Below are positions 3,607 to 17,088 of a DNA stretch of 17,088 nucleotides, piece by piece. The notes beneath the pieces were generated by a model. It saw only the letters and a program-made list of their open reading frames with translations, had not been told where the DNA came from and did no database searches. Every line of letters starts with the position of its first letter. The stretch's first letter is position 1. Where the stretch lies: assembly GCA_964619725.1 (NCBI GenBank), contig CAZUFC010000160.1:1-17088 (forward strand), read 5' to 3'. This stretch comes from an uncultured bacterium. Lineage in GTDB: Bacteria > CSSED10-310 > CAZUFC01. The position numbers and the translations under genes are program-made.

Positions 3607-4821
3607 TTATTCAACGGATAAATCGTACGAAATGCCGAAATCGACGGAATAAGCCGTCGGGGGAGAGCCGTCGCCTTCTTCGGCATAGATGCTTCCGCCC
3701 AGCTTTATTGTTAGGGCAGAGGTTTCCAGGACAGTTCTGATGCAGGTACGATGGATATGTCCGCTTAACTCGAAATGCCGCCACTCTTCAGAATCATCAG
3801 GATAAGCGATGAATTCGTAACCCGCAGCGATGATGAGCGAAGAACGGAGCGTTCTGATATAACCCAGGCCGGTTTTGAAGGTGTGTTCGATCACAGGGGG
3901 CTGCAGGTCTATCTCAGGAGTAAGCTGTTTGTAAAGATTGCCGCCCCAATACCCGTATTCCATGCTAAGCTGAATGATGTTGGACTCGTCCCGGGAAATA
4001 TCAAAGCCGGCATTGATCTTCAGGGGCATCCTCATGCTGATACGGTCGGTCGAACGGGAATCCCCCAATTCGGTTTCGCCTTCCAACCTGAAATTCGAAG
4101 CGTATTCGGCAAATGTCCTGAAATTGAAATGAGAACCCTCATATATCAGGCCGCATTGTATTCCCGTAGCGTAACCGGAATAGCGTCCGTCAAGGTTTAT
4201 CTCATAATCGGCAAAACGATCGGAAGCCCCGTAGAAACGGTATTCTTTTTCAGTATGAAAACGCATTTCACCGAAATAAATAACCGGAGCGAATGCAGCG
4301 GTAATCCGTTCCGTGAGTTTTCTGCCCAGGGCAGAACGGAACCGGTAAAAATGAATATTGTGATTGACGGCGAGGCGTATGGAATCCATGGTGCCGGTTT
4401 CATAGTTGATAAAGTAATAATAATCGCTGAATTTGAAAATGTTGACTCCGGAAAGTTGGAATTCTGCAGACCAGAACCAGTTCGATATCCTTCCGCTCAA
4501 CAGTAACGAAAAGGGAAATAAATCATCATCTTGCTCAGGCGCCGGAAACCTGTCCGGTTCAATACGGTACCTCTCATGAAAGAATGTCCGGTTTTTTTTA
4601 ACCTTAATACCTGTTCTCCGGCGGTTATAAAACCACGAAAAAGAAAATTGTATCGTTGAAGCGTCGGTAAAAAAAGCGGGATTCTCATCGGCAGAATCCG
4701 GCATAAGACTTGACAGACAGGGAAAAGGACGCAACGGGGCGAATTGAGCGTTTGCACTCTCCTCGACCGGGACCAGGAGTAAAAATACTAGAAAAAGGGC
4801 AGGTTTTAATGAAAATTTCAT
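3607..4821 (-). CDS. outer membrane beta-barrel protein, OmpP1/FadL/TodX-like
   Basis: 404 aa; signal peptide ending ANA; NPA motif near the N-terminus (DSADENPAFF) as in the FadL hatch; aromatic alternating strands; terminal strand YSVDFGISYDL. Confidence 0.65.
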   Translation of the reverse strand: MKFSLKPALFLVFLLLVPVEESANAQFAPLRPFPCLSSLMPDSADENPAFFTDASTIQFSFSWFYNRRRTGIKVKKNRTFFHERYRIEPDRFPAPEQDDDLFPFSLLLSGRISNWFWSAEFQLSGVNIFKFSDYYYFINYETGTMDSIRLAVNHNIHFYRFRSALGRKLTERITAAFAPVIYFGEMRFHTEKEYRFYGASDRFADYEINLDGRYSGYATGIQCGLIYEGSHFNFRTFAEYASNFRLEGETELGDSRSTDRISMRMPLKINAGFDISRDESNIIQLSMEYGYWGGNLYKQLTPEIDLQPPVIEHTFKTGLGYIRTLRSSLIIAAGYEFIAYPDDSEEWRHFELSGHIHRTCIRTVLETSALTIKLGGSIYAEEGDGSPPTAYSVDFGISYDLSVE

Positions 4822-7025: not shown

Positions 7026-7190
7026 ATTTTTCGGAGATTCAACAAAAACAAAGGCGTTTGGAATTGAACGGCATATTTTTTTGGGAGAACGGTAGTGGAT
7101 TTCTTCATACTTCGAATGCATCGTGAAAATTTCACAGAGTTCTGATCGGTCATTCGAGGGGCGGCAGGATTTTTTAAGGGAGTCAGTTTG

Positions 7191-10100
7191 ATGAGAGAAC
7201 AAATATGTTTTGTTGTGGTTTTACTGATGGTTGCGTTGTTTCCTTATGTGTCCGTTATGAAAGCAGCCGTTACACAGGATAAAGCGGTGGGAGAATCAGT
7301 CGGGATCATACACGGGAGCTGTCTTGCGTTCATTCCGGAACATGCTGATATGTCGATCAAAGGTCTTGGATTCTCGGCTGACGATTACGGGGTTCGAGAA
7401 GGAATATGGTCTTCGGAAGGAAGTCAACGGTCTCCGGGTGATCATTTCTTTTCCGCCATGCTGAGTCAGACGCCTTCGCCCGTTTTTACGGCTACGCCGG
7501 TTCCCACACCGGCTCCGACGACGGCCTGGACGGATGATCCGGTTGAAAACATCAAGGTAACAGCGCTTTCGGGTGATTTCTGGGGACATCGTATCATATC
7601 GGACGGTATGGGCGGATACATCGTCAGTTGGTGCAGTGAAGAGGGCGCGTTCGCTCAGAAATTCAACGATGCGGGTAACCGGATGTGGGGAGAGAACGGA
7701 ATCAGGATAGCCGGCGATGCGACGGATTTTTATGGCAGTCCGAGATTGTGCACAGACGGCATGGGCGGCGCTTTATTTTTCTGGTCGGCTTATCACGAGG
7801 GTGGAGAATATGAGGTTTGGGGACAGAGGGCGGATGCTGCGGGAAATTTACAATGGGGATTGAACGGCCAAAGGATAGGCGACGCCGGCGAAGAAGCTGT
7901 CTGTCCTGCGGCGGCGACGGATGGAAACAACGGCGCGTATGTTTTCTGGGCGGGGGAGCTTATGTATGCTCAGAGAATAGACGCCGAGGGGAATTCTCTC
8001 TGGTCGGAAAAGATTCTAATCGATACCGGCGGATATTCGCCTCAGATCGTTAGCGACGGACGCGACGGCGCAATATTAACCTACAAAAAATGGACCTACA
8101 GTTATTATGATATATGGGCGCAACGGCTCAATCCGCTCGGTATGAAGCTGTGGGGAAACAATTCATTACTGGTGAGCGGCGCTTTCAATTATCAGGAATG
8201 TCCCAGGGTCGTATCCGACGGCGCGGGCGGCGGGGTATTTGCGTATAAAAGCCGGAGCGTAGGCCTCTACAGCATTTTTATGCAAAGAGTTGAATACGAC
8301 GGGACCCCTTCGTGGATTGATGATGGGATTTGCTTTTATGACGGAGAGGTTGATGAGACTCATCTGGTTTCCGACGGAGCTGGCGGCGCTGTCGTCGTCT
8401 GGCGGGCAGCATCTGATTCCAACATATATGCCGGTCGCGTCGATGCCGACGGCAATTCCGTATGGAACGATCCCGTGCCGTTAACGGACCACGGAATGGT
8501 GGATGATTTTGCAAATTCTCCTCCGGCGGCGGTCACAGACGGCATGGGCGGCCTTATTGCCTTTTTTACCGTCTGGGACACGACAATTTACAAATATAGA
8601 TTGATGGGACAGCGAGTCGATTCATCGGGCAATCTCCTCTGGGGTATGAACGGGATAACCGTCAGCGGCGATCATGATACTGCGAAGAGTTGCGCTCGTG
8701 CAGCAGCCTGCGCAGAAGGTTGGGGAGGCGCAGTAGTTTGCTGGCAGGACGACCGCGATGGATTCAGCGACATTTATATAATGGGCGTCGATTCAGACGG
8801 CGGCCTGGGGGAGCCATGCACTCTGCTGCTGACCCCGATACCCTCAACTCCAGTATCCCCCACTCCGATCCACACCTTCACACCAACGCCGAATACCACC
8901 TGGAGCGTCGATACTTCTGAAAACCTTCTGGTCAGAGAATCAAGGACTGACGATGCTTATGCCCACAGAATCATTTCCGACGGCTTCGGAGGATTCATAG
9001 TTGTATGGTCATATGAAATGAGAATCAGCAAGGGCAATCGGTACTACATTGCAGCGCAGAAATTCAATGAATTGGGAAACAGAATGTGGGGACCCGACGG
9101 CGTTCTAGTCTGTGATTATCCTACAGAACCCTTTGGACCGCGGGTATGCGCCGACGGTTCGGGCGGCGCTTACTTCGTCTGGTATGACTATAATGATGAG
9201 GTTAGGGCTCAAAGAATAACCGCCGCCGGCGTCGTCGCCTGGCAGCCGAACGGCGTCCGGTTGTCGTCTGAGGACGAATACGGATATTGCCCGTTCGCCG
9301 CTTCGGGCGGAAACAACGGCGCTTATTTCGTCTGGACGGGATACAAGACTCTTGTGCAGAGAGTCAGCCCCAGTGGAACAGTTTGCTGGAACTCGCCGGT
9401 CGAGGTCGGAGCAGATTACGGATGGAGCGGCAAAATAACGGAAGACGGCACAGGCGGTTGCATCGTTGTGTGGATGCAGTACGGCAATGATTGGGACGAC
9501 GATATTTATATGCAGCGGCTGGATGCTAATGGAGTGAAGAAATGGGGCGAAGGCGGTTTCTGCGTATGTAATGCGGTCGATGATCAGGAATGTCCGAGGA
9601 TTATTTCCGATGGAAAAGGCGGCGCTTTTGTCATGTGGACGGATGAAAGAGACCCGGAGGACGCAATTTACGTGCAAAAAGTACGACCTCGCGGTTCTGC
9701 CGCCTGGGAAACGAATGGAGTTTGCGTTTCCGATTTTCCCGCACGTTCCTGGGGAGGACACTATATGGTCCATGACGGAACCGGCGGCGTTATAGCCGTC
9801 TGGCGCACTACGGACTATACTTTAAGAGCTAAGCGGATAGATTCATCCGGGGATAATGCCTGGCTCGGCAGCGAAGCTTTATCGACCATCGGCAGCATTA
9901 TTGATGTCGCCTACTCGCCTGTTCATGCCGTAACAGACGGCTTCGACGGCGCTATAGCTGCCTGGGTCGGGTATGACGAAACACTGGACCAGGATGTCGT
10001 TTATGCACAGAGAATTACCGGCAGAGGTTCTTTTCCCTGGGGACCCGGAGGTATAGTATTATGCGACAACAGTGAAGAGGAAATGAGCTGCGTCAGGGTC

Positions 10101-10844
10101 GCTCCATGTTCTGAAAACAAAGGCGGAGCATTGGCATGCTGGTGGGATGAAAGAAAATCTTTCGGACAAACGTTATTCGTCATGGGCATCAACCATCACG
10201 GCATTATAGGCGATCCGTGCGCCTGGCTTATCTCGCCGACGCCGGAACTGACTCCTTCAGAAATTCCTACGCCGCCTCCATCTGCAACGCCAACACAATC
10301 TCCCACAATGCCCCCGACCCTCACGCCCACTCTGTCCCCTACCCAGGCTCCAACCGATACCCCGACTTTAACGCCCACTCTCGTCCCGACAGATACCCCC
10401 ACATTAACGCCGACATTCACCCCGACCGATACGCCCACTCTGACGCCGACACTCGTCCCGACCGATACGCCTTCTTCAACCCCCACCTCGTCTCCTACAG
10501 ATTCACCCTCTCCATCTCATACACTAACGCCGACCCAAACCCTGACGCCTTCGCACACTCTCTCGCCCTCCCCTTCACTATCGCCAACCTTCTCACCCAC
10601 TTTAACTCCCACTTTTTCTCCCACACTTACTCACACCTTCTCCCCTACAGAAACTCCCACTAATTCGCCCACATCCTCCCCCACCAATTCGCCCACGCAT
10701 ACTTTCACTCCAACACCGCTCGAAACGCCCACGCCTACACTATCGCCGACGCCGCCTCCTGTTCCTGCAGCCGGCTCTTTCGGTGTTGCATTACTCGCAC
10801 TGTTGACAGGCCTCATGCTGGTGCATTCCAAATTTAAAAGTTGA
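7191..10844 (+). CDS. large surface protein: two tandem 8-repeat beta-propeller-like domains, P/T/S-rich stalk, IPTL-CTERM-like sorting tail
   Basis: ATG 7191 with RBS AAGGGAG (7176-7182); signal peptide; 16 repeats of the form (S/T)DGxGGhhhhW...hxxQRhDxxGxxxW; P/T/S tract; ends [27 protein letters not shown] (VP motif, TM helix, basic tail). Confidence 0.85.
10231..10760 (+). repeat. low-complexity Pro/Thr/Ser coding tract (PTDTPTLT-type units)
   Basis: Translation is PTxT/PSxS tetrapeptide periodic, including repeated [10 protein letters not shown] units. Confidence 0.9.
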
Positions 10845-11043: not shown

Positions 11044-11209
11044 GGGACTGATCAAACAGGGGTTACACTTCTTTCAAAACTTTGAAGGTTTGTTTCAGTT
11101 ATCGGGGGCGGGACCAGTATCGGGTTCGCAAGCGCAATTGAAATCGAAACAATTTGATGGAAGCTTCCGTCGAATTGTAACCTCAAAAGTCCTTTTTTTG
11201 ATCAATGCC
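11044..11209. mobile_element. MITE copy 1 (166 bp), IS1595-family-like ends
   Basis: TIR GGGACTGATCAAA vs reverse-complemented right end GGCATTGATCAAA (11/13); flanks TCGCCTGC / TGGCCTGA (6/8); homologous along its length to 14047-14201. Confidence 0.7.
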
Positions 11210-11650: not shown

Positions 11651-13741
11651 ATGAAGAAATCATATTTACCGACCATCGCGGCGACATGCATTTTAATGAT
11701 CATGTCGCTCGCGCAATTCAGCGGCGTATCGGCAAGAGACCTTGTGCCTTATGAGCCGGTCGTCATTGATGATCCCAACAATCCCGGAACGGGCGTCATG
11801 ATCATTCCCCTGGTTGATGACGGTTCTTCCGGCGCCAAATCGGATACGGCATTCCATTCATTCGTCCGTTATCCTTCGGAATGGGACACGCAATATTTCG
11901 AGGAAATGACGGATAACATCGCTTATACCAGGGACCTTTTGTTCGGCGGGCAAGCATCGATTTCCAGTCCGGCGGACGGCGAGACCTGGCATTGCAAGAT
12001 GGTCAGGCCCGACGGTTTGACCGCGACGTGGAACAAGTTGACGTTCTATGAGAATTATGAAGGGCAGACGAATTGTTTTATGACGCCCAACTGGGTTGAA
12101 CCTTTGTGCAACGTGACTTCCATATTGATGACCTGGTATACCGGCGGTCAATGCGGGCCGAAGGGAACCTGGACGATGACCTTTTACAACGACGATGTCG
12201 TCTATTATGAAGGTTCGTTCGAGGTTTATCCCCGGATTCCGCCCACGAAACCCAGCGGCGAGATAACGGTTCCCCGGTATAATCAGGGTTCCTGCACTGA
12301 TGCGTACGATAATATCTGCCGAACGGGAACCAGCCGTAATTCTTACCCCTGCGACGGGCGTCAGGGCGAGGTCCCCTGGACTGTAGCGGGTAAAGGTTGC
12401 GCCATGACCAGCGCCTGCATGGTGATGGCTTATCATGGCGTCTCGGTAACGCCTGCGGGATTCAACACCTGGTGTAAATCCAACAAAGGTTATGATCTCA
12501 ACGGCAATATCTTCTGGAATTCCGTCAACAGGTATTCGGCTTTGCAGGGAGAAGATAAAACCGTCTCTTTCCGAGGTTTCGGCGGCAATCTCAAAAACCT
12601 GATCTGCACTTACGGTCCCCAGATAATCAGCGTTAAAAACAACGGACACTGGGTGACGGCAATAGGACAGGTGGAAGATGAATCGACCTATATCATTAAT
12701 GATCCTGCAGGCGGCGTCGAAACGACTCTAAACGCTTACAGCAATACTTACAAGAGTATCAGGGCTTTTTCCGGGCCGGAACATGTGTTCGTCGACACGA
12801 TGTGCGGCATTACCATCAGATACCATTCGCCGGGCGAGTTGATCATCAGCGATTCAGACGGAAGGATGACGGGTTATGATCCCGATACGGGAGTTTTTTA
12901 CAACGAAATTCCCCAATCCAACTATGAATATATCGCTCTGCTTGAACCGGGAGAAGATTACCCCCCTGATTACGATATCGTAACGAAGTCCCTGGAAATC
13001 ATTAAGCCGCCGGACGGCCTGTTTTCGCTGGACGTCATCGGAACCGGCACAGGAACGTATGATCTGGAAATTCATGCTTTTGATCTTAATGGGAATCCCT
13101 CTTCCGGAATCTATAGAAACGTTCCGATCGCACCGGGAGACCTGCATAATTACGAATTCCTCTTTAAACAGGACGGCGGCAGCGAAATACCCACTCCTTT
13201 CCCGCCCACAGGTACGCCGTCGCCCGCACCGCCCACAGAAACGCCGACAGCAGCTCCGCCCACCGACACTCCTGCGCCGCCAACCGAAACCCCAACCCCC
13301 GCGCCTCCCACAGAAACGCCGACTCCAGCCCCTCCCACAGAAACTCCAACTCCTGCACCTCCCACAGAAACGCCGACACCTGTCCCGCCTACGGAAACTC
13401 CGACTCCCGTTCCCCCTACCGATACTCCAACGCCTGAAACTCCGACCAATACACCGACTTTCACTCCAACCTCGGAACCGACGAACACCCCTGCAGCCGT
13501 CGAATGCGAAGTAGAAATCGTAAACGCCCAATATTATAACAAACAAAAATGGTTAATGGTGATAGCTCTTTGCGATAAAAAAGGAGCCACTTTGACGCTC
13601 TGGGATGACGCCGGACATTTCCTGGGCACAATGACTTCGCACGGCGCTCAAAATCACAGGTGGAGAGGAACAGTAGACCATAAACCAGAATTCGTTGAAG
13701 TTCGCAGTGATTGCGGAGGCGTTGACACGGCCAAGTTGTAA
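11651..13741 (+). CDS. secreted multidomain peptidase C39-like (papain-fold) protein with PT-rich linker and small C-terminal beta domain
   Basis: RBS AAGGAGGG; signal peptide; Peptidase_C39_2-like motifs YNQ (12284), GCAMTSACMV (Cys 12398), GHWVTAIG (His 12647), YIINDP (Asp 12701); then HSPGELIISDSDG..GTGTGTYDL beta-sandwich, PT repeats and an ~80-aa terminal domain. Confidence 0.85.
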   Translation: MKKSYLPTIAATCILMIMSLAQFSGVSARDLVPYEPVVIDDPNNPGTGVMIIPLVDDGSSGAKSDTAFHSFVRYPSEWDTQYFEEMTDNIAYTRDLLFGGQASISSPADGETWHCKMVRPDGLTATWNKLTFYENYEGQTNCFMTPNWVEPLCNVTSILMTWYTGGQCGPKGTWTMTFYNDDVVYYEGSFEVYPRIPPTKPSGEITVPRYNQGSCTDAYDNICRTGTSRNSYPCDGRQGEVPWTVAGKGCAMTSACMVMAYHGVSVTPAGFNTWCKSNKGYDLNGNIFWNSVNRYSALQGEDKTVSFRGFGGNLKNLICTYGPQIISVKNNGHWVTAIGQVEDESTYIINDPAGGVETTLNAYSNTYKSIRAFSGPEHVFVDTMCGITIRYHSPGELIISDSDGRMTGYDPDTGVFYNEIPQSNYEYIALLEPGEDYPPDYDIVTKSLEIIKPPDGLFSLDVIGTGTGTYDLEIHAFDLNGNPSSGIYRNVPIAPGDLHNYEFLFKQDGGSEIPTPFPPTGTPSPAPPTETPTAAPPTDTPAPPTETPTPAPPTETPTPAPPTETPTPAPPTETPTPVPPTETPTPVPPTDTPTPETPTNTPTFTPTSEPTNTPAAVECEVEIVNAQYYNKQKWLMVIALCDKKGATLTLWDDAGHFLGTMTSHGAQNHRWRGTVDHKPEFVEVRSDCGGVDTAKL
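13202..13492 (+). repeat. coding tandem repeat, ~9 x PPTETPTP(A/V)
   Basis: Nine PPT(E/D/G)TP-type units, mostly 27 nt, followed by PTNT units. Confidence 0.9.
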
Positions 13742-14046: not shown

Positions 14047-14201
14047 AGAACTGATCAAACCGGGATTACACTTCTTCCATAACTTTTGACAGTTTGTTTC
14101 AGTAATCAGTATCGGTATCGCAATCGGGATCGAAATCGAAACAAAATGATGAGATATTCTTTCGAAATGCAACCTCAAAAGACGCATTTTTGATCTATGC
14201 C
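14047..14201. mobile_element. MITE copy 2 (155 bp), same family and orientation as 11044-11209
   Basis: Shares ACTGATCAAAC, TTACACTTCTT, GTTTGTTTCAGT, GAAATCGAAACAA, AACCTCAAAAG and TTTTTGATC.ATGCC blocks with copy 1; flanks GCTAACAT / GTTAATAT (6/8). Confidence 0.7.
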
Positions 14202-14274
14202 GTTAATATGATGTACAGATTAAATAACGACAACGACAGCAGCAACGATTATAAATAAACATATTTACTTTTAA

Positions 14275-14614: not shown

Positions 14615-15577
14615 ATGACCGAGGTCAATATACTTCATCTCTCGGACACTCACTTCAAAGAAGGTGATGAGAACAAACAGAAGACTTATGCGGCAGACGT
14701 GACGACGAAATTAATAACAGCCGTATCTGAGCACATAGAGGAGCATTCGCCCCATGTCGATTACGTAGCTTTTACGGGCGACATAGCGTTCAACGGCCGC
14801 GATTACGGCGAAGCGTGGAAATTCTTCAGTAAGTTGAAGGAAAAATTATCCCCGGATGCTGTTTTTCTTATCGTGCCCGGGAATCATGATGTCGACCGGA
14901 AAAAGGTAAAAGGGCATATATCTCTCCACGACATGGTTGAAAATCAAAAAACAGATAACTTTCTTGAATCGAAAGAAGACATAAATTATCTCCTCATCCC
15001 CAAATTCAAAGCCTATCGAGAGTTCGTGGACAGGATTCAACCCGGATTATACGAATTAGAGGACGATTATTACTGGGTTCACAATGACGAGGACCGCCGG
15101 GTGACGTTTTTGGGACTCAACAGCGCCTGGGCCTGTCAGGACGACGATGACCGGTTCAAAATAACGCTCGGATATCCGCAGGTCATGGGGGCCCTGGACG
15201 AGTCACTAGCCGCTATGCCGTTTAAGATCGCCCTGATGCATCACCCGCCGGAAAACTGGTTCGAAGGAAGAGATTTCGGCCGTTACTACGGTGAACTTGA
15301 GCATCACTGTTTTTTAATCCTGCACGGTCATAAACACAAGGATGATGCAAGACTCGTAAACACACCGACAGACCGCTGCATAACCCTCGGCGCCAACGCT
15401 TCTTATACGAAAGAGGGCGACGGTTTCGTAGGTTTTCAGTTTATCCGTATAAACTGTCGGAAAAGAAGATCGACGTGCGCGTTTATCCCTACAAACTGGA
15501 AAAGATCGAGCGGATTCAGTTTCTGCCCGCCAGGAACCGCTGGCGGGGACAGAAAGGATGCGATTACTTCGATCTGA
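14615..15577 (+). CDS. calcineurin-like metallophosphoesterase domain; N-terminal part of a frameshifted phosphoesterase-NACHT fusion
   Basis: All five motifs present: HLSDTH, FTGDIA, VPGNHD, MHHPP, LHGHKH; the last ~40 aa (after GFQFIRI) look out of frame. Confidence 0.9.
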   Translation: MTEVNILHLSDTHFKEGDENKQKTYAADVTTKLITAVSEHIEEHSPHVDYVAFTGDIAFNGRDYGEAWKFFSKLKEKLSPDAVFLIVPGNHDVDRKKVKGHISLHDMVENQKTDNFLESKEDINYLLIPKFKAYREFVDRIQPGLYELEDDYYWVHNDEDRRVTFLGLNSAWACQDDDDRFKITLGYPQVMGALDESLAAMPFKIALMHHPPENWFEGRDFGRYYGELEHHCFLILHGHKHKDDARLVNTPTDRCITLGANASYTKEGDGFVGFQFIRINCRKRRSTCAFIPTNWKRSSGFSFCPPGTAGGDRKDAITSI

Positions 15578-17088
15578 CGATAGAGCAGGCTTGCGAAGAA
15601 GAAAGGGAATCCCGTTCATCCCTTACTATTCCCGAAGGATACAGGCAATGGTTGAAGGATGATAATTCCATATTGCGTTTCGATGAGTTGGCCGCCAGTG
15701 GAGAAGCCGTCGTCCTCAGTCTCCCGAAATTGTACATTCCATTGGAAACCGCGAATCCGGACTACAAACCGAAAGAACGGGAGGGGATGCATAAAAAAGA
15801 AATGTTTGAAGAATTCGTCGGTGAAGAGGATGCGGACGAAACCGTTGAGGAGGCCGGTGAAAGCCCCACAATCAGCATAGAAGAACTCCTGATGAAAAAG
15901 AAGTGTATTCTTCTGCGCGGAGAAGCCGGCACAGGCAAAACAACCCTGGTCAGGCACCTGGCTTACTCACTGGCCCAAAGCAGATGCCCGGCGGGTATGC
16001 AGTTCCGGCTGCCGGTCCCGGTGTTTTTCAAAACGTTCTGGTCTGTTTTCGACAAAGAATACAAAGAGAAACGGGACTGCATCGACATGACGGAGCTGCT
16101 GGATAAATATTTTCAGCACGCCGAATGCCCTTTAACCATGGAAACAGTGAAAACCTGGGCGAATCAGAACAGGGCCGTTTTCCTGTTCGACGGACTCGAC
16201 GAAATACCCAAACATCTGCGCCCGGAATTAGTGGAAAAAACCGCGAATTTTCGTAAGGCCCACAAGGAGAACGTATTCCTGTTCACGGGACGCAGTCACG
16301 GGGTCGCCGGCAAAGCCGCCCAGAGCTTCGGCAAACATCTCCACGATATTAATCCGTTGAACAGGGACCAGGTAAACTCGTTCATCGGTCGCTGGTTCGC
16401 TTCCGTTAAAAAACAGGCCAAAGGTATGGCGCAAGCAACCGCAGAATCCATGATCTCCGACATGGAGCGGCATGAACACATCGGACCGTTCTCCGAGAAT
16501 CCCCTGCTGCTGACCGCCCTGTGCATCCTTTACCTGGACGGCAACCGTTTCCCCGATCAGAGGGCCGATCTGTATGACAGGACGGTAAATAACCTGATTT
16601 TCCGCAAGTTCCACGATCCCGCCGATCCCGAAATGGAAAACCGAGTCGATGACTACCTGATGCGAACGGCATTTTATGTGCATGAAGAGAGAAAACGGGA
16701 ATTCGACGAACATATTGCCGAAGAACTGATTAAGGAATCATTCCCCAAAAAGAAAGAGGAAAAAGAAGTCGATTACAAAATGCGGCAGAAAGAACTTTTC
16801 CGAAGCATTGAACCCGATTGCGGACTCTTGAGACGGCTCGACAGCGGACAACTGGAGTTCTTCCATTTGAGTTTCCAGGCGTTCCTGGCGGCAAAACGAA
16901 TTAGAGATGCGGTATTGGACCATAATACCTTCCTGGATGACGAATGGTGGGAAGAAGCTCTTCTGCTCTATGCCGGCTTGCGCAACAAAGGATCGAAAGT
17001 ACTCAGCGCCCGGATAATCGAAGAAATCATGCGGCATGCATTGATGCCGGGTAAAGACAAAGAACGGCTGCTGCTTCTGGCCGCAAAA
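15451..17088 (+). CDS. NACHT-family STAND NTPase region (partial, runs off the window; -1 frame continuation of the 14615 gene)
   Basis: Hand translation: frame is stop-free from 15334 to 17088; LPKLYIPL, Walker A GEAGTGKTT (15919-15945), LPVPV, Walker B AVFLFDGLDE (16174-16203), FLFTGR, NPLLL (16498), RADLY, LEFFHLSFQAFLAA (16852), WWEEALLLYAG. Confidence 0.9.

Follow-up and report, generated by a model that had tools for sequence, protein, structure and literature searches.

Positions 14615-17088 of the window, by which we mean the whole 17,088-nt contig (C160) that was analysed from the genome bin of an uncultured bacterium (344 contigs, 9.17 Mb), carry a calcineurin-like phosphoesterase and a NACHT NTPase in two joined, overlapping frames. 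This pairing is confirmed far beyond chance. It is likely, in our judgement, that the stretch constitutes the first ~825 codons of a ~1,130-codon NLR-like STAND gene whose product combines a phosphoesterase effector, a NACHT module and an FGE/C-type-lectin sensor, and that the gene is inactivated here after having once served as a target of a diversity-generating retroelement (DGR) in a cassette that has since decayed. As the window is the entire contig, the gene breaks off where the contig stops. The Metallophos-NACHT-FGE architecture is abundant and has already been described in print, so the novelty of the locus is low; the window copy is a further, inactivated example of it.

Two overlapping frames of one gene

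The 320-amino-acid (aa) open reading frame (ORF) at 14615-15577 on the plus strand encodes a complete calcineurin-like phosphoesterase (Metallophos, PF00149; Pfam E 2.5e-7 and 31.8 bits, where the cut-off is 21.5, over profile positions 2-190 of 191). The frame at 15451-17088 encodes a NACHT domain (PF05729; Pfam E 3.1e-17 and 63.3 bits, where the cut-off is 26.7, over profile positions 3-165 of 167), along with weaker Pfam matches to nSTAND3 and AAA. Metallophosphoesterases bind metal ions through the motif set DxH, GD, GNHD/E, H and GHxH, and all five motifs are present in the window: LSDTHF (14639-56), TGDIAF (14774-91), PGNHDVD (14876-96), LMHHPP (15233-50) and LHGHKHKD (15320-43). The residues D11/H13, G55-D56, G89-N90-H91-D92, H209-H210 and G238-H239-x-H241, which are invariant or at least 90% conserved among 35 sequences, are all retained. 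The NACHT domain carries a Walker A motif (GEAGTGKTT, 15919-45) and a Walker B motif (VFLFDGLDE, 16177-203). The original prediction, made from the letters of the window, had reported a complete phosphoesterase and a NACHT motif set, and both Pfam matches above cut-off and the recovery of all motifs bear this out.

That prediction had also placed a 546-codon frame at 15451. Its NACHT content stands, but 15451 is not a boundary, as the frame is already open from 15346 (581 codons up to the window end at 17088) and is listed among the ORFs as beginning at a GTG codon at 15475 and remaining 3'-open to the window end. The phosphoesterase and NACHT frames overlap and are offset by one base. When joined they yield 825 codons, in agreement with the predicted fusion product of at least 825 aa.

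Homologous proteins reveal how the two frames relate to each other. There are 592 longer proteins related to the phosphoesterase ORF at E<=1e-3, and 107 of the best 120 of these carry PF00149, PF05729 and PF03781 together, mostly in chains of 1,095-1,160 aa with 44-54% identity to the phosphoesterase ORF. The remainder of the 120 consists of partial proteins, a few that have a different ATPase (PDDEXK_9/AAA-ATPase_like) and one that lacks NACHT. Since the homologues are single Metallophos-NACHT-FGE-sulfatase polypeptides, the two window frames belong to one gene, as had been proposed. The contrary outcome, namely homologues that are never fused to phosphoesterases, did not occur, and fused homologues dominate. 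Members of the family are spread over ANME-1 archaea, Aminicenantes, Acidobacteriota, Deferrimicrobium and Clostridia. This spread is patchy, with a match in 3 of the 30 other genomes searched, of which a single one (G005, 39% identity) is strong; among these 30 genomes none that could serve as a synteny relative is nearer than the same phylum.

The portions of the gene that lie within the window are listed below, where P0001 and P0002 (1,129 aa) are single-chain homologues.

14615..15463, plus strand: Metallophos effector domain (PF00149), in frame 2 as far as the frameshift; 50-54% identity to the N-termini of fused homologues; AlphaFold pLDDT 81.7, pTM 0.87
15446..15474, plus strand: frameshift zone, with 29 nt where homologues have 30 (10 codons), as judged from the spacing of 'FQFI' to 'VRVWPY' in homologues; likely site the A-run 15461-15464
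15464..15577, plus strand: continuation of the phosphoesterase ORF out of frame, as far as TGA 15575-15577; its frame-2 translation STCAFIPTNWKRSSGF is without counterpart in homologues
15475..15906, plus strand: final phosphoesterase strand VRVYPYKL and linker to the NTPase, in frame 1; aligns with 'VKVWPY...RW.GQEGP.FEL...IP..YK.W' of P0001/P0002
15907..16401, plus strand: NACHT NTPase domain (PF05729), residues 153-317 of the 15451 frame
16402..17088, plus strand: post-NACHT helical region, which leaves the contig at about residue 826 of P0002 (tblastn matches P0002 residues 267-826 to 15424-17079)
17034..17088, plus strand: last 55 nt, an identical suffix of exactly 55 nt that the paralogous contig C226 has at one end; here the assembly graph branches towards a collapsed repeat

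A one-base loss in or next to a short A-run

No single frame runs uninterrupted through the three domains, as evident from the stop of frame 2 at 15577. Homologues follow the pattern '...GANASYT..K.GFIGFQFI-(10 residues)-VRVWPY...RW.GQ.G..FEL', whereas in the window frame 2 encodes GANASYTKEGDGFVGFQFIRINCRK and frame 1 encodes KKIDVRVYPYKLEKIERIQFLPARNRWRGQKGCDYFDL, with 29 nt between 'FQFI' and 'VRV' instead of 30. The conserved Arg codon (cgg, 15458-60) is still read in frame 2 and the 'ID' of 'IDVRVYPY' (15469-74) is already in frame 1, which places the missing base in or beside the A-run 15461-15464. A tblastn search with P0002 likewise returns two overlapping high-scoring segment pairs (HSPs), one in frame 2 and one in frame 1.

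The window stretch is present in four sequencing runs (X1-X4) from one microbial-mat study, and contigs of X2-X4 cover parts of it; no RNA data set is among those listed as containing the stretch. Separately assembled contigs cross the frameshift with no other letters and no gaps: X1 over 15274-16242 (depth 8.6-9), X2 over 15179-15530 (depth 3.3) and X4 over 15331-15656 (depth 3.2). Because these three contigs are unchanged across the site, the frameshift is real DNA and a slip in the assembly of the bin is unlikely.

A competing idea attributes the frameshift to an error in sequencing or assembly, or to a minority allele, and credits the organism with an intact Metallophos-NACHT-FGE gene; it draws on the quality of the data. 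The bin is metagenomic (90.9% complete, 6.5% contamination), and the depth at the site is only 3-9. A homopolymer is a classic place for indel errors, but a 4-nt run is short for a systematic one, and the three separately assembled runs agree across the site without an indel. A point in favour of the idea is the dN/dS of 0.22, which shows long-term constraint. Over 311 codons, the window copy and a paralogue described below (copy B) differ by a dS of 0.286 and a dN of 0.063, and because the divergence of the two copies thus took place mostly under constraint, the inactivation is recent. Against the idea, copy B and the adjacent reverse transcriptase (RT) gene carry independent inactivating lesions, for which decay of the whole cassette is the simpler account. 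We therefore consider an error or minor allele very improbable, and marginally more so than the next alternative.

It could also be argued that the locus works as it stands, either as a split system of two polypeptides (a free 320-aa phosphoesterase and a NACHT-FGE protein restarted at GTG 15475 or at the first in-frame ATG, ~15781) or through occasional -1 ribosomal or transcriptional slippage at the A-run, which would yield some full-length protein. Both halves retain all catalytic motifs, the frames overlap by ~230 nt, and a purine-rich stretch lies ahead of the frame-1 GTG. However, the break falls inside the phosphoesterase module, where it leaves the near-invariant 'V.VWPY' strand in the other frame. 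Relatives of 260-400 aa do exist on long contigs, such as P0128 (326 aa, 49.9-kb contig) and P0155 (293 aa, 35-kb contig), but most of the short relatives either form single-member clusters drawn from short contigs or bear the label partial, and the three-domain fusions among the best longer homologues (107/120) speak for one chain. The sister copy and the DGR are also plainly decaying. A slippery heptamer takes the form X XXY YYZ, and four A nucleotides are too few for efficient slippage; the window sequence CGG AAA AGA does not fit this form. Programmed frameshifting was rejected as a candidate on these grounds, since recoding is unlikely given the lack of a canonical slippery site and the fact that the homologues are in frame. 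Overall, a working split or slipping locus seems improbable to us.

Thus, the window gene has probably become a pseudogene only recently, when a single base was lost in or beside the short A-run. The hidden gene of the original prediction is therefore not a working one, as the frameshift is genuine and the gene is most likely a pseudogene beside a dead DGR with a truncated RT and no template repeat (TR). The phosphoesterase ORF and the uncalled NACHT frame form a single pseudogene, and neither should be annotated separately.

Copy B and the probable continuation of the gene beyond the contig end

A paralogue with 90% identity, copy B, is located at C226:1-1174 on the minus strand. Compared with the window copy, it has lost 1,306 nt internally, between 14847 and 16154 of the window numbering, and it contains a TGA stop codon. 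Contigs of both X1 and X2 include the deletion joint, with a depth equal to that of the window copy (9.06 versus 9). The stretch assigned to copy B spans positions 1-1273 of C226 (locus L015, minus strand), with its presumed 3' end at positions 3865-3979 of contig C295 (locus L016). This presumed end carries more deletions, and an FGE fragment there is fused to an HRDC fragment.

Contigs C160 and C226 end at the same homologous base, and their terminal 55 nt are exactly identical. The starting 55 nt of the other C226 end and of the C295 end are likewise exactly identical, and both of these continuations start at about residue 990 of P0002, within the FGE domain. Matching 55-nt ends of this kind are what a de Bruijn graph leaves where it branches into a collapsed repeat and out again. 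The connecting repeat measures ~0.5 kb, corresponds to P0002 residues ~826-990 and was not found among the contigs of the bin. The shared ends imply that the window gene continues into one of two termini.

C226 8551-8129, minus strand: candidate terminus 1, with an intact FGE-sulfatase end (E 3.3e-34), then HRDC (E 2e-17), bAvd (E 3.7e-18) and a truncated RT
C295: candidate terminus 2, where an FGE fragment of 41 residues is followed by deletions and by part of an HRDC gene

We regard a single tandem array in the order C160, C226, C295, with the window gene joining the FGE end on C226, as clearly the more probable arrangement, because this order keeps the lightly and heavily damaged parts separate and reproduces the order seen in relatives. 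The FGE-sulfatase domain thus lies outside the window, and the two contigs connected by the shared 55-nt ends start inside such a domain. An FGE-sulfatase/CLec sensor had been guessed for the missing C-terminus, and it is indeed what the homologues carry and what both continuing contigs contain.

A further feature of C226 is a 944-aa ORF (L015, 1981-4815, plus strand) that lies, in opposite orientation, between the truncated RT gene and copy B. Its product contains Pro/Thr linkers and shows a faint match to Disaggr_repeat (E 0.0067). This ORF may mark the rearrangement that removed the 3' half of the RT gene and the TR.

A decayed retroelement on contig C226

The DGR at this locus is decayed, with a truncated RT and no TR found. 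The C226 RT matches only positions 8-131 of the 205 in RVT_1 and aligns with residues 1-216 of the 334-aa RT encoded on contig C9 of this genome, ending before YMDD; no frame contains the remainder. Although bAvd adjoins (E 3.7e-18), the adjacent RT lacks an intact catalytic core. A TR for the FGE 3' end on C226 was sought by blastn (word size 7) against the genome and by an adenine-tolerant ungapped scan of C226, C295 and C160, and only the self-match was returned, leaving the C226 FGE gene without a pairing of variable region (VR) and TR. The check proposed earlier for an RT and a template repeat therefore succeeded in part: a truncated RT and an Avd were found, and a template repeat was not.

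The last 135 nt of the C226 FGE gene contain 11 A (8%) compared with 99 A in the 291 nt upstream. In relatives, VRs contain 7-14 A and TRs 24-31 A. This VR-like depletion of adenine weakly suggests that the FGE 3' end was formerly mutagenised. A comparison of the putative fossil VR with the TRs and VRs of other loci gave ~66% generic identity and nothing firm beyond the adenine count.

These observations indicate that the window copy was probably one of two tandem targets in a cassette arranged as target-HRDC-Avd-RT-TR-target. This cassette has decayed to an RT without its catalytic half, no recognisable template repeat, and a second target with a 1.3-kb deletion and a stop codon. As a long shot, the loss of RT and template may have left two frozen, possibly self-reactive NLR-like targets that were then silenced quickly, by deletion in one and by a one-base A-run change, revertible in principle, in the window copy. 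If true, loss of the diversifier would select for receptor loss or for a reversible switch-off, in parallel to the birth-and-death of plant and animal NLR genes.

Related loci in this and other genomes

From species genomes, 77 related loci were fetched, and at least 178 of 600 pattern matches were confirmed. An RT is present in 3 of the 77 loci. The layout gene-HRDC-Avd-RT-TR-gene occurs in 2 of 25 close loci (L044 and L047), where VR mismatches fall at TR adenines in 12/14, 16/19 and 17/19 cases, and tandem gene copies are found in 6 of the 25. Because L044 and L047 share this layout, the arrangement inferred for the window gene is known and working elsewhere.

The same genome also holds less damaged relatives. 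P0002 yields 38 HSPs on 27 contigs, and RVT_1 yields 12 matches, 10 of them above cut-off. On contig C9, an intact 1,206-aa Metallophos+NACHT+FGE gene (100822-104442) precedes bAvd, a TR and a complete RT, and another FGE target lies close by; 8/11 and 13/15 of the VR mismatches are at TR adenines. On C26, one TR is accompanied by two VRs, with all mismatches at TR adenines (18/18 and 19/19, or 37/37), and on C280 the proportion is 19/21. The live-looking DGRs on C9 (~100.8-108.5 kb), C26 (~28.9-35.9 kb) and C280 each target one or two NACHT/STAND-FGE-sulfatase genes. Diversification by a DGR had been suggested for the missing sensor, and L044, L047 and these in-genome paralogues, with their RTs, Avd proteins and adenine-specific TR/VR pairs, substantiate it for the family.

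An intact 1,250-aa Metallophos+NACHT+FGE paralogue resides on C23 (8962-12714), where no RT match was found on the contig and no repeat pair within the 8 kb around the paralogue. Three further RT ORFs of 436-506 aa, on C274, C247 and C66, match RVT_1 at E 1e-43 to 6e-35, far more strongly than the DGR RTs. They probably belong to another retroelement class, such as the group II intron type.

One genome thus presents several grades of such loci: copies targeted by live-looking DGRs on C9, C26 and C280, an intact copy on C23 where the search turned up no DGR, and a two-target cassette that has decayed completely. A graded series of this kind in a 9-Mb microbial-mat genome could be used to study the gain and loss of hypermutated bacterial immune receptors, and the intact paralogues on C23 and C9 are candidates for learning what the phosphoesterase effector hydrolyses.

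Predicted action of intact members and effector chemistry

The tripartite order of the gene matches that of bacterial NLR-related proteins and Avs, and on this basis we propose a sensor-NTPase-effector mechanism. In intact members, a ligand on the lectin-fold C-terminal sensor would release the NACHT module, which would then bind NTP and oligomerise. Oligomerisation would in turn activate the N-terminal phosphoesterase to hydrolyse phosphodiester or phosphoanhydride bonds. Its substrates could be nucleotides, in which case dNTP/NAD-type pools would be depleted or a signal degraded, or nucleic acids. Growth of the infected cell would be arrested as an outcome.

The AlphaFold model of the phosphoesterase (pLDDT 81.7, pTM 0.87) shows the beta-sandwich fold of these enzymes and gave 201 Foldseek matches in the PDB at E<=1e-3, all of them metallophosphoesterases among the matches listed. 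The top match is 9a6c_B, an uncharacterised integrative model of YydB (TMq 0.77), and later matches (TMq 0.43-0.58) include GpdQ, Rv0805, SMPDL3, purple acid phosphatases and Mre11. A literature search on YydB/YydD gave nothing on function among the matches listed. Comparison with PDB entries by sequence returned weak matches to Rv0805/Icc alone (E 0.0045-0.045). The phosphoesterase matches the PADLOC model PDC-S60 (PDLC05051) at E 1.7e-35 and, at E 2.3e-19, a model labelled 'Effector / Endonuclease'. The PADLOC check that had been suggested for the gene therefore gave a candidate system for the effector, and for the NTPase nothing beyond P-loop level.

We infer both the immune role of the family and the chemistry of its effector. 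Hydrolysis of nucleotide pools has about an even chance of being the effector activity; cleavage of nucleic acids is a distinctly weaker candidate, and degradation of cyclic-nucleotide signals a weaker one still.

The last of these activities is at the centre of another explanation, in which the family is not an immune one and is instead a signalling STAND ATPase whose class-III-type cyclic-nucleotide phosphodiesterase tunes cyclic nucleotide monophosphate (cNMP) levels when the lectin-fold domain binds a ligand. The best sequence matches of solved structure are indeed the cNMP phosphodiesterases Rv0805/Icc, but these are weak (E 0.0045-0.0083), and the matches to PDC-S60 and the 'Effector' model are much stronger. 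Relatives are named 'CpdA' in source annotations, and Dore et al., for one DGR target, speak of these domains as 'signal transduction domains'. The window offers no defence-island context. On the other hand, the patchy and cross-domain distribution (ANME-1 archaea, Aminicenantes, Clostridia), tandem arrangement, DGR targeting and rapid pseudogenisation here are typical of conflict genes, and calcineurin-type nucleotide-depleting effectors have been demonstrated in a defence system. We give little credence to a non-immune role.

Several points weigh against the proposed explanation of the window gene as a formerly DGR-targeted, NLR-like immune receptor. The link to the FGE-bearing contigs runs through an unassembled repeat of ~0.5 kb, and C226 is preferred only because the more decayed pieces then group together. 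Support for the frameshift comes from assembled contigs, not reads, and contigs lose rare variants, so that an intact minor allele is conceivable. Coverage amounts to a depth of only 3-9, a single study supplied all of the runs, and X1 is possibly the source of the window itself. The fold search leaves nucleases and nucleotide phosphodiesterases undistinguished, with GpdQ, Rv0805, SMPDL3 and Mre11 all at TMq 0.43-0.54. PADLOC matches to the NTPase part are of P-loop level only (best 4.7e-6), and PDC-S60 is a candidate rather than a validated system. The other genes of the window encode OmpA, BNR/sortilin-like, GNAT and C39-like peptidase proteins, and no defence genes are among them. Finally, we know of no protein of the exact Metallophos-NACHT-FGE architecture that has been tested experimentally.

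Other features of the window

Directly upstream of the phosphoesterase gene, at 14048-14205, lies a copy of a dispersed intergenic repeat of ~150 nt that is also present at 11047-11209. This repeat yields 616 blastn HSPs on 216 of the 344 contigs, with 223 near-full copies (>=130 nt) on 136 contigs, a median identity of 80% and about equal frequencies of the two orientations. It looks like a MITE/REP-type element. A search of the whole window, including this repeat, with Rfam gave no matches at gathering scores.

The ORF at 11651-13741 (plus strand) encodes a secreted-looking protein of 696 aa with a Peptidase_C39_2 domain and a long Pro/Thr-rich repeat of the PTETPTPAPP type near its C-terminus. 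No Pfam match at E<=1e-3 was obtained for the ORFs at 7188-10844 (plus strand, 1,218 aa) and 3607-4821 (minus strand, 404 aa). GC skew changes from +0.17 to -0.35 across 9-11 kb of the window.

Comparison with known systems

Most characterised Avs proteins combine TPR-like repeat sensors with nuclease effectors. The tripartite effector-STAND-sensor logic of Avs is shared by the window gene. FGE-sulfatase-like sensors are described among defence-associated STAND clades in the main text of a recent study (Nature 2026, PMC13581612), and the same main text makes no mention of phosphoesterase, metallophos or calcineurin.

The candidate system PDC-S60 resembles the window gene through the N-terminal 283 positions of its profile, which match the phosphoesterase (1.7e-35), and faintly through positions 364-542, which lie over the NTPase (E 0.0058). 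These matches suggest that PDC-S60 has the same order of effector and NTPase. Its 1,027-position profile differs in having no match to the FGE region of full-length P0002, and a full-text literature search found no paper on PDC-S60.

A biochemical precedent for the effector is PUA-Cal-HAD, whose Calcineurin-CE effector converts dNDP to dNMP and cleaves NAD+ in vitro (10.64898/2026.01.15.699771). In this anti-phage system, which oligomerises and is coupled to a sensor, a calcineurin-superfamily phosphoesterase does the killing, and we propose a comparable effector role for the window domain. PUA-Cal-HAD differs in its PUA sensor, in having no STAND NTPase and in requiring a HAD partner, and the window domain was compared with it by description alone.

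Similarity to the bNACHT proteins extends to the overall plan of a central NACHT, an N-terminal enzymatic effector and a C-terminal sensor. The window copy departs from these proteins in being frameshifted, and no PADLOC NACHT-defence model matches its NTPase beyond P-loop level. The bNACHT proteins that have been tested by experiment are not known to carry either this effector or this sensor. Calcineurin-like phosphoesterases are listed among NACHT effectors, and FGS as one of two antigen-receptor-type sensors, by Kibby et al. (10.1101/2022.07.19.500537). FGS and calcineurin domains are also found in related conflict systems (Kaur et al.).

Close counterparts are the DGR-diversified 'antigen sensors' of multicellular bacteria, which are NACHT/STAND proteins with a C-terminal CLec/FGE domain that bears the VR, often with two targets per DGR, as presented by Dore et al. 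(PNAS 2024, PMC10907252). There, a target with Metallo (PF00149), NACHT and CLec domains is assigned to DGR 7 of Thiohalocapsa PB-PSB1; this target differs from the window gene by an additional vWA domain and by its place within a MoxR ternary system. The locus described here departs from such DGR-diversified STAND-CLec systems in that its DGR is dead (RT truncated, no TR found) and both of its targets are broken. Live-looking loci of the described kind are present in the same genome on C9, C26 and C280.

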